Source: Eubacteriales bacterium (lineage in GTDB: Bacteria > Bacillota > Clostridia > Oscillospirales > CAG-272). Taken from it: 64,000 bases of DNA. Position numbers and translations under genes: made by a program. The first letter of the stretch is position 1, and each line of letters begins with the position of its first letter. The notes under the pieces are model-generated. The model worked only from the letters and a program-made list of their open reading frames with translations. It had not been told where the DNA came from and did no database searches. The stretch lies in NCBI GenBank assembly GCA_045531965.1, contig JAZSFA010000071.1, forward strand, positions 2,315-66,314, written 5' to 3'. Shown here one piece after another: positions 7,621 to 11,627 of this stretch.

Positions 7621-7659
7621 AAAAGGAACCGAACGTCACGCTCGGTTCCTTCTCTTTTT
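7621..7659. terminator. Bidirectional terminator
   Basis: AAGGAACCGA/TCGGTTCCTT stem with A-run and T-run between convergent genes. Confidence 0.8.
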
Positions 7660-9658
7660 AATCCTGAAGCTCTTCCAGCTCCTCGTACACCTCCATCAGC
7701 CGCTCCTCTTTTTGGGTCTTGAGGGTGTCAAGCTCAGCCACGCGGACGAAATCCGTGGCGGCCTCACCGTTCATCTCGGCGTCGATGTCGTCAATGGCCT
7801 GCTCCAAGGCCTCGGCCTCGGCGGTGAGCTTTTTGATGCGATTCTGCCGCTTTCGCTCGTCGGAGGCGGAGCGCTTTGCCTTCTCATAGTCCTCCTTGGC
7901 GGTGGAGGGGGTGGCGCTTTCCGTGACAGCCGCACCCATCCTGGAGGGGGAGATGCCGCCCGTGCGGCGATTCTCCATGAAGCGGCGGTACTCGGTGTAG
8001 CCCTCGCCGGGGCGATCCACGTGATAGTCGGTGAAGTCGGCCTCCCCCGTCACACCCGAGATGCCCGCGCCGGGGGTGATCTCAATCATGCGGGAGGCCA
8101 GCTTTTCGATGAAATAACGGTCGTGGGAAACGGCGATGATGGTGCCGTCGAAATCCTTGAGGGCGGTCTCCAAGGCCTCGCGGGAGTCGATGTCCAGGTG
8201 GTTGGTGGGCTCGTCCAACACCAAGAGGTTCATCTTGGAGAGGATCAGCTTGCACAGGGTCAGCCGCGCACGCTCGCCGCCCGAAAGGACGGACGCTTCC
8301 TTGTAAACGTCCTCCCCGATGAAGCGGAATTGCGCCAGACGGTTGCGGATCTCGGTCTCGGTCAGCTTGGGATAAGCACTCCACAGCTCCTCAAGGACGG
8401 TGTTTTCGGGGGTGAGATTCTGGTTTTCCTGGTCGTAGTAGCCAATTTCCACGTTGTAGCCCGCCTCTATGACACCTGACAGCGGCTCTAACTTGCCGAT
8501 GATCAGCTTGATCAGGGTGGACTTGCCGCAGCCGTTCTGTCCCAGGATGAACAGATGGTCGTCCTTCTTGACGAGAAAGCTCAAACGTGAGAACAGGACG
8601 CGGTCGCCAAAGCCCATGGTCACGTCACGAAGATCCAGCACCTCGTTGCCGCTCTGCCGCGAGGCGGTGAAGCGGAGCTTGATGGGCGTGGGGGCGTTTT
8701 CGGGCTTTTCCAGGCGGACGATGCGATCCAGCATTTTCTGACGGCTCTCGGCGGCGATGATGTTGCGCTCACGGTTCCATCTGCGCTGTTGGGCGATGTA
8801 GGCCTCCTGACGGGCGATCTCCTTCTGCTGATCCTTGTAGTGCTTCTCGGCCAGGGCACGGTCGATCTCCCGCTGCTCCATGCTTTGGGTGTAGCCGCCG
8901 TTGTAGAGCTTGGCCTTGTGGTTCTGAATGCACAGGGTCTTATTGGTCACACGGTCGAGGAAGTAACGGTCGTGGGAGATAATCATGACACAGCCCTTGT
9001 AGTCGGAAAGGTAATGCTCCAGCCATCCCAGGGTCTCAATGTCCAAATGGTTGGTGGGCTCGTCCAGCAGCAGGACGTCAGGCTCGCGGGAGAGCTGGAT
9101 ACCCAAGGCGAGACGGGTCTTCTGTCCTCCGCTCAAGTGACGGACGGGCATATTGACCAGCGCATCGTCAAAGCCGAGACGGCGCAAAATGCCCAGGCAA
9201 CGGCCGCGGAACTCGAGGCCCCCGTCGGCAATAAACCGCTCGTTGAGGGCGGTGAACTCACGGGTCAGGATGTCATAGGCCTCCTGACCGCCTGCGGCCT
9301 CTATGCCCTCGTTGAGCTTGCGCTCCAATTCAGCAAGGCGTGCTTCGTCACGGAGCAGGGCGGGGAAGGCGTGGTACATATGGTCGAGGGCGGATTCGTC
9401 CTCGCTGCCATCCTCGCTTTCGGCGGCAAAGGCACCCTCCTGGGTGAGGATCCCCAGGGTCTTGCCCTTGGACAGATACACCTCGCCCTCGGTGGGCTCG
9501 TATTCTCCCGTGATCATTTTGAACAGGGAGGACTTGCCGCTGCCGTTGACGCCGATGATGCCCAGCTTGTCTTTTTCGTCCAGCGAAAAGGAGATGTTTT
9601 CAAGTATGGTGGTGGTGCCGAACCTGAGTGTCAGGTCGGTGACGCTGATGATGATCAT
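7658..9658 (-). CDS. ABC-F family ATPase
   Basis: Two NBDs (GVNGSGKS/LSGGQ/DEPTNHLD; GQNGCGKS/LSGGE/DEPTNHLD), no TM, C-terminal coiled coil. Confidence 0.95.
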   Translation of the reverse strand: MIIISVTDLTLRFGTTTILENISFSLDEKDKLGIIGVNGSGKSSLFKMITGEYEPTEGEVYLSKGKTLGILTQEGAFAAESEDGSEDESALDHMYHAFPALLRDEARLAELERKLNEGIEAAGGQEAYDILTREFTALNERFIADGGLEFRGRCLGILRRLGFDDALVNMPVRHLSGGQKTRLALGIQLSREPDVLLLDEPTNHLDIETLGWLEHYLSDYKGCVMIISHDRYFLDRVTNKTLCIQNHKAKLYNGGYTQSMEQREIDRALAEKHYKDQQKEIARQEAYIAQQRRWNRERNIIAAESRQKMLDRIVRLEKPENAPTPIKLRFTASRQSGNEVLDLRDVTMGFGDRVLFSRLSFLVKKDDHLFILGQNGCGKSTLIKLIIGKLEPLSGVIEAGYNVEIGYYDQENQNLTPENTVLEELWSAYPKLTETEIRNRLAQFRFIGEDVYKEASVLSGGERARLTLCKLILSKMNLLVLDEPTNHLDIDSREALETALKDFDGTIIAVSHDRYFIEKLASRMIEITPGAGISGVTGEADFTDYHVDRPGEGYTEYRRFMENRRTGGISPSRMGAAVTESATPSTAKEDYEKAKRSASDERKRQNRIKKLTAEAEALEQAIDDIDAEMNGEAATDFVRVAELDTLKTQKEERLMEVYEELEELQD

Positions 9659-9680
9659 ATGGTTTTCCTTTGGGGAGAGC

Positions 9681-9747
9681 GCAAGGGAACCCGCACTGCA
9701 AGCAGTGCCTTGAAAGAAGGTTCCCTTGACCCTCCAAGAACTTTTAA
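9681..9747 (+). repeat. REP-like palindromic repeat, copy 1 (with nested GCACTGC-AA-GCAGTGC hairpin)
   Basis: CAAGGGAACC...GGTTCCCTTG plus tail ACCCTCCAAGAACTTTT. Confidence 0.8.
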
Positions 9748-9787
9748 TAAAATAATTGATGGGATAGAGATAAATTTTATCGAGGTA

Positions 9788-9816
9788 TTGACAGGATGAG
9801 GAAAACGTGCTATAAT
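9788..9816 (+). promoter_or_regulatory. Sigma-A promoter of antisense sRNA
   Basis: Perfect TTGACA-17 nt-TATAAT with extended TG, and no plus-strand CDS downstream. Confidence 0.9.
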
Positions 9817-9821
9817 ACTAA

Positions 9822-9908
9822 CGTAGAGCACCGATGACGGTTGCTCCCAAGTTGCAATTATAAGAAATAACCGCCTTATGTGAGAGTCAGGCGGGTATTT
9901 CTTTTTTT
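9822..9908 (+). ncRNA. Putative antitoxin sRNA (about 87 nt) convergent on the toxin gene
   Basis: Promoter, then terminator AAGAAATAACCGCCT/AGGCGGGTATTTCTT plus T-run abutting the toxin stop codon. Confidence 0.75.
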
Positions 9909-9993
9909 ATTTGTCTCGGCGATTTTGAAAATACTCGGCGAGAGCGATAATCAAGGATAATATCATCAGTAATTCTACCAATGTAATGTACAT
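9907..9993 (-). CDS. Small hydrophobic peptide, putative type I (holin-like) toxin MYITLVELLMILSLIIALAEYFQNRRDK
   Basis: 28 aa, one TM helix and charged tail; strong GGAGGTGG RBS; own promoter; below the ORF-track cutoff. Confidence 0.8.
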   Translation of the reverse strand: MYITLVELLMILSLIIALAEYFQNRRDK

Positions 9994-10111
9994 GGTTACC
10001 ACCTCCCTCCAACGAATTTGAAGGGAGAAAAAGAAATTTTCGCTCCCTTCTGTGTTCAGGGAGCAACCGCCACCGTATATGGTGCTCTACGGGTACTTGA
10101 GTACCGAAATT

Positions 10112-10140
10112 ATTATAGCATAATTGAAGAATTAAGTCAA
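10112..10140 (-). promoter_or_regulatory. Sigma-A promoter of the toxin mRNA
   Basis: TTGACT-17 nt-TATAAT with extended TG on the minus strand. Confidence 0.85.
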
Positions 10141-10197
10141 TATCATATTATGATTTTCGTACAACAAAGGCGAGCCGAGGGGCTCGCCTTATATATT

Positions 10198-10497
10198 TTA
10201 TCCTATGAGACTTCTAAATTCTTCGGAAGCCGCGAACTGTTGAGCTTCAGAAGCACGAACTGCCAGCAAAGGATGTTCGCTGTCCTTAGTCAGCAAAAAC
10301 TCCAACACCTTATTTACCTTGCTTTCATCTACGATTTGTTTGTAATCGGTTGCCTGCTCGATGAATAAATCTTTATTGATTTCAGAATCAATATGTGTTG
10401 TGCCTCCTGCAAGACGCATCATCGTTTCAATAACAGGGGTTGCACTTCCGCAACAAATTACAGCCACTCTGTCGGCTGAAAGTTCACTACATCTTCT
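10198..10497 (-). pseudogene. 3' fragment of an M48-family metallopeptidase
   Basis: Reads RRCSELSADRVAVICCG...MMRLAGG...HPLLAVRA; HExxH part absent; homology ends at repeat copy 2; own terminator near 10167-10190; AT-richer than flanks. Confidence 0.7.
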
Positions 10498-10555
10498 TTT
10501 AAAAGTTCTTGAAGGGGTTCAAGGGGGAACTTCTTTCAAGAAGTTCTCCCTTGGC
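10498..10555 (-). repeat. REP-like palindromic repeat, copy 2 (inverted relative to copy 1)
   Basis: AAAAGTTCTTGAAGGGGTTCAAGGGGGAACTTCTTTCAAGAAGTTCTCCCTTGG. Confidence 0.85.
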
Positions 10556-11627
10556 GTTCCCTCTTGCGTTCTCCCTCGTTCTCCCCCTTCTGCTCCGCCC
10601 GTCTGAGCTGACCGCAGGAGGCGTTGATGTCCGCGCCCAGCTTGCGGCGGACGGTGGCGCGGATGCCTCGCTTTTCCAGCACAGCCGCGAAGGCCTTCAC
10701 CGCCTCATCGCTGGAGCGGGAGAAGCCTGTCTCCTCCACCTCGTTGACGGGAATGAGGTTGACGTGGATGGGCATGGTGGTGGTGCGAGTGCGAAGGTGG
10801 CGGTTTAAGACGTTGGCCAGCTTGGAGGCACCCTCGGGGGTATCGTTTTTCCCTGCGATGAGGGTGTACTCGAAGGACAGGCGGCGGCCGGTCTTGTCGT
10901 AGTAATCCTTGCAGGCGGTGAGTAGCTCGTCCACACCCCAGCGGTTGTTCACGGGCATGATGGAGGAGCGGGTCTCGTCGTCGGGGGCGTGGAGGGAGAT
11001 GGACAGGGTGATGGGGAACTCCTCCTCGGCCAGTTTATAAATGCCCGACACCACCCCGCAGGTGGACAGGGAAATGTGGCGGTAGCCGATGTTCAGCCCG
11101 TCGGGATGAGCGACGAGACGGAGGAACTTCACTACGTTGTCGTAGTTGTCCAAAGGCTCGCCGATACCCATCATGACGATGTTGGAGATGCGCTCCCCCA
11201 TGTCCTTTTGGGCGGCGATCACCTGACCCAGCAGTTCCCCGGGAATGAGATCCCGCACCTTTCCGCCGATGGTGGAGGCGCAGAACTTGCACCCCATGCG
11301 ACAGCCCACTTGGGAGGAGATGCAGATGGTGTTGCCATGGTTGTAGCGCATGACCACCGATTCCACACAGTGACCGTCGGATAGTTCAAAAAGATATTTC
11401 ACGGTGCCGTCCAGGGCGCTGACCAGCTTGCGGCGTACCTTGGGCAGATGATAGGTGGCAACGGCGGCCAGCTTTTCGCGGGTCACCTTGCCGATGTTGG
11501 TCATTTCGGCGGGAGATAGTCCCTTGTGAAGCTGGGGAAACATTTGTTTCGCTCTGTATTTGGGTTCGCCCACCGATAGGAGCAGAGCTTCCAATTCTTC
11601 GGGGAGGCATGACAGGAGATCGTTCAT
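10536..11627 (-). CDS. rlmN: 23S rRNA (A2503-C2) methyltransferase RlmN
   Basis: CISSQVGCRMGCKFC radical-SAM motif, MGIGEP, ASCGQL. Confidence 0.97.
   Translation of the reverse strand: MNDLLSCLPEELEALLLSVGEPKYRAKQMFPQLHKGLSPAEMTNIGKVTREKLAAVATYHLPKVRRKLVSALDGTVKYLFELSDGHCVESVVMRYNHGNTICISSQVGCRMGCKFCASTIGGKVRDLIPGELLGQVIAAQKDMGERISNIVMMGIGEPLDNYDNVVKFLRLVAHPDGLNIGYRHISLSTCGVVSGIYKLAEEEFPITLSISLHAPDDETRSSIMPVNNRWGVDELLTACKDYYDKTGRRLSFEYTLIAGKNDTPEGASKLANVLNRHLRTRTTTMPIHVNLIPVNEVEETGFSRSSDEAVKAFAAVLEKRGIRATVRRKLGADINASCGQLRRAEQKGENEGERKRERQGRTS

Follow-up and report, generated by a model that had tools for sequence, protein, structure and literature searches.

A type I toxin-antitoxin-like locus of an Eubacteriales bacterium with a predicted 5'-3' fold-back in its toxin mRNA

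Architecture of the locus and its peptide

The window is the whole 64,000-nucleotide stretch of DNA analysed here, and the locus within it consists of two convergent genes that meet at a terminator hairpin (Table 1). The first-pass annotation had named two convergent near-consensus promoters, and both were borne out. A promoter scan of positions 9000-11000 returned 6 promoter-like sites, against 1.2±1.1 in shuffled sequence, and the sRNA promoter is present in most relatives of the locus. The annotated plus-strand RNA ending at the terminator is also present, with its two ends inferred from the promoter and the U-tract. This sRNA folds at z=-3.7 and scores 76.5 bits on the family's own covariance model. 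The terminator is absent from the terminator-scan list because its loop exceeds the 8-nt limit of that scan.

Table 1. Coordinates of the predicted features of the locus
Feature	Position	Strand	Remarks
Antisense-RNA promoter, sigma70/sigmaA-type	9788..9816	+	TTGACA-17-TATAAT, extended TG; 12/12 consensus match
Antitoxin RNA, predicted, ~85 nt	9822..9908	+	5' hairpin, linker, terminator
Blocks 1 and 2, sRNA copy	block 1 9822-9832; block 2 9838-9848	+	arms of the sRNA 5' hairpin (9826-9846)
Intrinsic-terminator hairpin	9862..9908; arms 9862-9876 and 9889-9903	both directions	overlaps toxin stop codon
Peptide gene, putative toxin	9907..9993	-	28 aa from ATG, single-TM, Hol_Tox/PepG1-like
Shine-Dalgarno (SD) sequence GGGAGGT	10001..10007	-	conserved in relatives
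Hairpin C, predicted anti-SD/SD hairpin	10003..10027; 10027-10018 paired with 10012-10003	-	OFF fold; from folding
Hairpin B, predicted SD-releasing	10020..10050	-	ON fold; forms when SD is held open
Hairpin A	10040..10066	-	block 2 paired with 5' arm of hairpin B; OFF fold, short or nascent mRNA
Blocks 1 and 2, mRNA 5' copy	10059..10091; inverted, 10091-10081 and 10069-10059	-	5' strand of the fold-back helix
Small 5'-terminal hairpin	10092..10105	-	at predicted mRNA start (~10105); from folding
Toxin-mRNA promoter	10112..10140	-	TTGACT-17-TATAAT; 11/12 consensus match

The annotated gene for a transmembrane peptide with a strong SD was confirmed; a GTG start at 10002 was discarded since it overlaps the SD. 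The peptide has a best 19-residue hydropathy of 2.43 and the C-terminal sequence RRDK. It is a small hydrophobic single-TM peptide with a charged C-terminus, as in the TxpA/SprG/BsrE-G-H group. Searches of Pfam, NCBIfam and PHROGs gave no convincing match, and Hol_Tox (PF16935) was not matched at its 23.3-bit cut-off. Weak matches to SHP (E 0.049, for a 31-aa form) and phrog_2798 (E 0.014) were discarded. Against a 38-member family HMM from which the peptide and its nearest match had been withheld, it scores 33 bits; 0 of 2000 shuffles reach that score.

Its relatives are more readily placed. Hol_Tox is matched by 18 of 40 aligned peptides and NCBIfam PepG1 by 6 of 40, both at E<=0.1, and the curated Hol_Tox cut-off is exceeded by 6 of 16 relatives tested, including the paralogue L032 of the same genome (28.3 bits). 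The Fst family is absent from the Pfam matches of the 40 peptides. The first-pass annotation had pointed to Hol_Tox and Fst as families to search: the window peptide itself matches neither, whereas relatives pass Hol_Tox. The family profile also finds PDB 7ns1 (E 3.3e-5), which we take to be SprG1-31. In the family alignment, five T columns that follow the Thr codon are invariant and fall at second codon positions, as expected of a translated hydrophobic helix. From its sequence, the window peptide appears to belong with the Hol_Tox-passing homologues of the same locus family. The NCBIfam competence inhibitor ComI is matched by 7 of the 40 peptides of alignment A1 (best E 2.4e-4), a hint at non-lethal roles in the peptide superfamily.

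Family and genomic setting

A search with sRNA-only patterns gave 111 unique matches; in 92 of them a hydrophobic ORF runs convergently and stops at the terminator, which lends computational support to the first-pass reading of a type I toxin-antitoxin-like locus. These 92 yield 68 distinct peptides, a few spurious calls included. The patterns drew gut metagenome, viral and genome contigs; the genome-contig pattern was too loose and its matches were mostly due to chance. Titled records among the matches comprise Ruminococcus sp. UNK.MGS-30 and unclassified Clostridia and Eubacteriales.

By DNA search, 20 of 28 genus members match at E<=0.01, some through the promoter only. The covariance model matches 35 of 150 other genomes of the same taxonomic family (16 at 50 bits or more) and, mostly weakly, 16 of 150 genomes of the phylum; its low-scoring matches often cover the terminator alone. 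The full architecture was found in one other taxonomic family (L320, L337), and the exact pattern in 0 of 400 other genomes across the class. The distribution is patchy. Within the window, Rfam gives no match at gathering score and its sub-threshold matches are unrelated, so the covariance-model search suggested at first pass assigns the sRNA to no Rfam antitoxin family. Neither the 50,697 phage records nor the 72,556 plasmid records searched with blastn gave a match.

The module sits between rlmN, which scores above its NCBIfam cut-off, and an ABC-F ATPase gene (7658-9658, minus strand; 453 bits on NCBIfam ribo_prot_ABC_F, cut-off 380). The ATPase passes none of the named resistance models, is conserved in the genus and is probably a housekeeping protein. 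A full RNA-model match occurs at this site in 0 of 9 relatives' loci, 7 of which span both flanking genes, so the module is probably a recent insertion. In the closest relative the site holds a gap of ~240 bp, and another relative carries different cargo. Palindromic REP-like repeats in inverted orientation (9682-9747 and 10498-10580; 21 and 106 blast matches genome-wide) flank the module together with an 89-aa ORF (10198-10467, minus strand). This ORF is single-copy in the genome, has no family match above chance and is possibly a gene remnant; a hairpin after it (10167-10190) would insulate the toxin promoter.

The same genome holds one paralogue on contig C91 (G000:C91:2216-2305, L032/L290), a complete second module whose block 1 differs in sequence and whose peptide passes Hol_Tox. 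Variants of the layout occur elsewhere. In a leader-ORF subgroup (L003, L181, L182, L190, L198, L218, L219; also L207, L292, L297), a strong SD precedes a +1-frame ORF whose start lies 31-34 nt ahead of the toxin ATG, and the toxin ATG lacks a properly spaced SD of its own. The leader ORF stays open for 43-51 codons beyond the toxin stop in 7 of 7 scored loci. This layout resembles mok/hok coupling or a frameshift, and the literature search found nothing on such a subgroup. Orphan antitoxin-like RNA genes (the second copies of L004 and L005, L307, L336 and L002) have no adjacent toxin ORF or, at L002, one that is missing both start and leader; they could give immunity to incoming modules. Simple-type modules, in which block 2 itself is the anti-SD, occur in multiple and tandem copies (the L153-L288 set), also on viral contigs; L155, L157, L158 and L159 lie on one 58-kb contig, and L193, L285 and L287 are further examples.

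Fold-back helix, read-through and the Shine-Dalgarno site

The first-pass annotation had described sequence blocks shared, in inverted orientation, by the 5' ends of both RNAs, and these lie where it placed them. When at most 2 mismatches are tolerated in each block, the 3.47-Mb genome holds 3 copies of the two-block pattern, 2 of them inside this locus. Folding of a read-through toxin mRNA gives z=-9.3, and its final ~28 nt pair with the 5' blocks. The resulting fold-back helix of ~27 bp joins 10059-10091 with 9821-9848 on the minus strand, where 9822-9848 forms the 3' strand. On this reading the likeness of the two RNA starts is accounted for: the mRNA tail can pair with the mRNA 5' end, and the sRNA in turn is complementary to that tail. 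A 5' hairpin of variable sequence, like that at the predicted start of the window's mRNA, recurs in relay-type relatives, in which block 2 is predicted to act on the SD with the help of further hairpins.

Among 20 aligned mRNAs, the two fold-back helices pair in 95-98% of cells versus 36-59% in slid controls, and fold-back and terminator together pair in 96.4% of cells, which is matched by 0 of 500 shuffles. Compensatory change is seen in block 1, where 9 of 11 pairs changed on both sides. Invariance of the block-2 core is uninformative because that core was part of the search pattern; loci found later by the covariance model carry block-2 variants, and the UTR copy changes along with them. 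Block 1 is free to vary among loci and matched inside each one, with the cognate duplex at -48.3 vs -38.5 kcal/mol. The helix ends within -5 to +1 of the sRNA start in 32 of 32 loci. This covariation is evidence of selection on the helix, with the loci related and the counts therefore overstating independence.

The differences between sRNA and UTR copies are mostly of the kind that leaves G·U pairs on the mRNA strand. Changes of the type A>G/C>T number 88 against 9 of the type G>A/T>C (40 others), or 32 against 9 when family-wide positions are left out; as distinct events, 20 run toward G·U on the mRNA strand and 7 in the opposite direction. Part of this polarity could come from the sRNA end being constrained on both strands. 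Taken together, these comparisons suggest that the shared blocks are best explained by a 5'-3' helix in a read-through toxin mRNA. Covariation and folding thus back the first-pass proposal that the mRNA 3' end folds back onto the 5' end, while folding and co-folding with the sRNA agree with its proposal that the sRNA competes for that 3' end.

The first-pass annotation was too strict in allowing the terminator a U-tail in the sRNA direction only. Beyond the GC core, the next 12 nt are GTATTTCTTTTT on the sRNA side and TTATTTCTTATA on the mRNA side, and family means over 32 loci are 9.8 U per 12 nt on the sRNA side versus 7.3 on the mRNA side. The latter U-tract is weaker but usable, which counts against the model. 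Its read-through mRNA nevertheless gains computational support from helix covariation and from hairpins embedded in the promoters of relatives. In 13 of 32 loci the sRNA promoter is spanned by a terminator-like hairpin on the mRNA strand (-10 kcal/mol or better, with a U-tract on that strand), versus 1 of 32 at the mirror position. These hairpins are mostly built around the -35 box of the sRNA promoter, 38-65 nt beyond the helix, and the sequence of the inverted repeat varies among loci while the U-tract stays on the toxin strand (L005, L006, L007, L012, L016, L026, L042, L065, L072, L185, L192, L195, L267). The repeat is likely a terminator hidden inside the antitoxin promoter; a role as an operator is conceivable. 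The hairpins would offer independent support for read-through.

No strong promoter-embedded hairpin was found in the window or in 18 other loci of the 32. The window's long mRNA could instead owe its end to trimming as far as the helix, or to the palindromic repeat around 9682-9747. The A fraction at the promoter discriminator is 0.58 versus 0.45, the idea being that the helix base and an A-rich discriminator might together make a U-tract. Three gut metatranscriptome runs contained 12-22% of locus words. Their contigs cover 9806-10085 in part and leave 10088-10180 bare; short ones span the sRNA -10 box, and one runs into the promoter of a relative. All were left out of the evidence because they are unstranded, come from relatives mostly 88-97% alike, and lack a DNA control.

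Accessibility of the SD was calculated for loci with both promoters. From 65 such loci, 6 were removed for bad ORF or start calls (L021, L121, L189, L238, L262, L282), and the others were collapsed at 80% identity to 32 non-redundant loci, 28 of the relay and 4 of the simple type. Adding the tail lowers the median SD opening energy from 10.9 to 6.3 kcal/mol in the relay loci and from 12.2 to 5.9 kcal/mol in the simple loci, all energies being equilibrium predictions on related sequences. The drop exceeds 1 kcal/mol in 28 of 32 loci, compared with 1 of 32 for shuffled tails; the gain is at most 1 kcal/mol in the other 4, and the energy rises in none. Masking the tail's complement of block 2 cancels the effect in 30 of 32 loci, masking block 1 in 0 of 32. 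The covariance model later gave 31 further hits, 12 of them scorable; 2 repeat earlier loci, and a drop is seen in 8 of the 10 others. Co-folding with the sRNA raises the opening energy again in 27 of 32 loci (median 6.15 to 10.95 kcal/mol).

In the window, the SD opening energy falls from 12.4 kcal/mol in the short form to 5.9 with the tail, and sRNA binding raises it from 7.4 to 13.6 kcal/mol in silico. The minimum-energy fold of the long form keeps the SD hidden (unpaired probability <0.06 per base), so activation would be only partial. In relay loci, block 2 either holds hairpin A so that hairpin C hides the SD, or pairs with the SD around hairpin B. The fold-back is thus predicted to release the SD and antitoxin binding to restore the lock. 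A second detail of the first-pass annotation needs correcting besides the U-tail. Its "anti-SD hairpin" at 10020-10050 exists and does not contain the SD, being the competitor of the SD-hiding pairing of 10027-10018 with 10012-10003; its fold-back model has computational support, and what it missed is the predicted release of the SD by the fold-back.

The locus is very probably a real, conserved type I toxin-antitoxin-like module, its anatomy, its conservation in the family and the covariation being directly observed. A putative convergent antisense RNA with its own promoter and terminator overlaps the 3' side of the toxin gene, and the SD is predicted to be sequestered in the toxin mRNA (12.4 kcal/mol in the short form), both as in type I systems. 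An activating fold-back in the toxin mRNA, for which the folds and energies are predictions, is likely. In nascent or terminator-stopped mRNA, block 2 would be free and the SD hidden, either directly by block 2 or through a relay of hairpins A and C. A toxin mRNA that reads through the whole antitoxin gene would pair its 3' tail with its own 5' end. This tail would capture blocks 1 and 2 in the ~27-bp helix and pull the anti-SD block away, after which hairpin B could form and the SD would be cheaper to open. The 85-nt RNA, as the exact complement of terminator and tail, would strip the tail from the 5' end and re-lock the SD, and its pairing with the mRNA would give a long duplex for RNase III. 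Toxicity, RNase III cleavage and read-through in vivo would follow by analogy with homologues in B. subtilis and S. aureus.

Three other explanations were weighed against an activating fold-back. The helix might be inert, stabilising the read-through mRNA and blocking exonucleases, with the sRNA acting only through RNase III decay, as reported for RatA and SR5, and the SD hidden at all times. The mostly paired SD of the window's long form fits this account, as does the absence of an SD change with RatA and SR5 in the available part of one report (PMC6562991). It is nonetheless unlikely, since opening energies fall consistently and in one direction, and the effect depends specifically on block 2; in simple loci this block is the anti-SD itself, and in several relay loci it surrounds hairpin B. 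Pairing in trans is a good deal harder to reconcile with the data. Here the mRNA would end at the shared terminator, and the sRNA would kiss the terminator loop while its block-2 copy paired with the SD or the hairpin-B arm, as in SprA1AS- or par-like systems. Such an arrangement is very improbable: the UTR follows changes in block 1 and in the bases beyond block 2 although these have no partner at the SD, the G·U polarity is of the kind expected for the mRNA strand, the sRNA hides block 2 in a hairpin of its own, and terminator-like hairpins lie beyond the sRNA start. The U-tract on the mRNA side of the terminator speaks for it, as do a YUNR motif in 30 of 32 sRNA-side loops, that of the window lacking one, and predicted sRNA-SD duplexes of -12 to -34 kcal/mol, which are far weaker than the cis pairing (median -92 kcal/mol).

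The least probable account, and a very slight prospect, dispenses with the fold-back. The blocks would be a shared protein-binding or stability hairpin, or the relic of an inverted duplication kept alike by conversion, and the peptide may be a non-toxic membrane regulator. Blocks 1 and 2 do form a hairpin in each RNA, some relatives match ComI (7 of 40), and YhzE-2 of a similar locus is non-toxic according to the available text of PMC2887945. Yet block 1 varies among loci and still matches within each locus (-48.3 vs -38.5 kcal/mol), and conversion does not produce the G·U polarity.

It is possible, if rather doubtful, that the sRNAs form a distinct, undescribed antitoxin family of gut Clostridia, with transcriptional read-through as the gate on toxin output. 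If so, the SD-unlocking tail would be made solely by polymerases that run past the antitoxin terminator and on across the entire antitoxin gene, and in many loci they would stop at a terminator within the antitoxin promoter. Toxin output would then follow termination efficiency and head-on promoter interference rather than antitoxin decay alone, and the anti-SD relays of two depths and the mok-like leader-ORF subgroup would be interchangeable versions of one switch. The analysis also supplies a covariance model for an antitoxin RNA missing from Rfam.

Comparison with known systems

The locus is probably a toxin-antitoxin module of the Hol_Tox/PepG1/BsrG kind that works like bsrG/SR4 of B. subtilis, and it introduces no new class of system. 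In the available parts of the bsrG/SR4 study (Jahn & Brantl 2013, PMC3834814), mRNA nucleotides 1-35 pair with nucleotides 232-262 in helix P1, SR4 covers the 3' arm of P1, and the freed 5' nucleotides refold so that SD sequestration grows from 4 to 8 bp. A bsrG construct mimicking the 4-bp state could not be established, and first contact involves the antitoxin terminator loop. SR4 has four stem-loops, of which SL1 is not complementary to the mRNA. Because this fold-back SD mechanism is published, the locus is less novel than the first-pass annotation implied. The sequence shared by antitoxin and mRNA 5' end would itself follow from the bsrG/SR4 geometry.

Set against those parts of the study, the present locus shares convergent genes, a 5'-3' helix with the antitoxin lying over its 3' arm (here from covariation and folding) and a strengthening of SD sequestration on antitoxin binding (here in silico, 27 of 32 loci). 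The two systems differ in several respects. Unlike SR4, the predicted RNA has 85 nt and two stem-loops, and would lie wholly inside the mRNA and start at the helix base; Rfam has no match for it. An mRNA terminator directly behind the helix is missing from the window; in 13 of 32 relatives one lies 38-65 nt farther along, and where present it is built into the antitoxin promoter. Most loci also have the A/B/C relay. The locus is thus probably a compact variant in which the antitoxin is nested, the SD is controlled by a relay and the antitoxin promoter often contains a terminator. It would extend the stripping of a 3' arm and re-locking of the SD, probed in one Bacillus locus, to a widespread family of uncultured gut Clostridia.

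TxpA-like peptides have already been noted in Clostridiales in the accessible part of Fozo 2010 (PMC2887945). A full-text literature search, with most subscription journals outside its scope, returned no paper on this RNA or toxin family; the loci may be in the supplementary tables of Fozo or T1TAdb. SprG/SprF of S. aureus has a related peptide, PepG1, and a convergent antitoxin that acts in cis through 3' overlap (PMC6393307, PMC4885055), with SprG2/3 overlaps of 57-97 nt and SprF as the cis-acting RNA (PMC6393307). The available parts of these two reports describe no activating 5'-3' helix or shared 5' blocks.

The systems txpA/RatA and bsrE/SR5 have toxins of the same superfamily, a 3'-overlap layout, a strong SD held in a stem and RNase III decay, and bsrE is said to fold like bsrG (PMC3531473, PMC6562991, as far as their available text goes). 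Their antitoxins are longer and overlap only partially, and the same text gives no SD change on binding of RatA or SR5 (PMC6562991). In the accessible portion of the T1TAdb report (PMC8594479), Gram-positive antitoxins overlap the mRNA only partly, whereas the present RNA would be nested in it. Fst/par loci likewise have convergent genes meeting at a terminator hairpin. Their direct repeats let RNA II pair with the mRNA 5' region (PMC3834814, available part), whereas the repeats here are inverted and the 40 peptides have no Fst match, so the contrast with Fst/par drawn at first pass was well founded.

In hok/Sok and aapA/IsoA, long-distance 5'-3' pairing also controls translation (PMC8167048, PMC3834814), and the antitoxin lies fully inside the mRNA span (T1TAdb, PMC8594479). 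Sok lies 5' of its ORF, whereas the antitoxin here is on the 3' side. In the parts of PMC8167048 and PMC3834814 that are available, fold-back in hok and aapA inhibits translation and 3' trimming activates it, whereas the fold-back here is predicted to activate. The locus would then be a compact natural switch of ~330 bp whose 3' tail turns translation on, opposite to the inhibitory fold-backs of hok and aapA.
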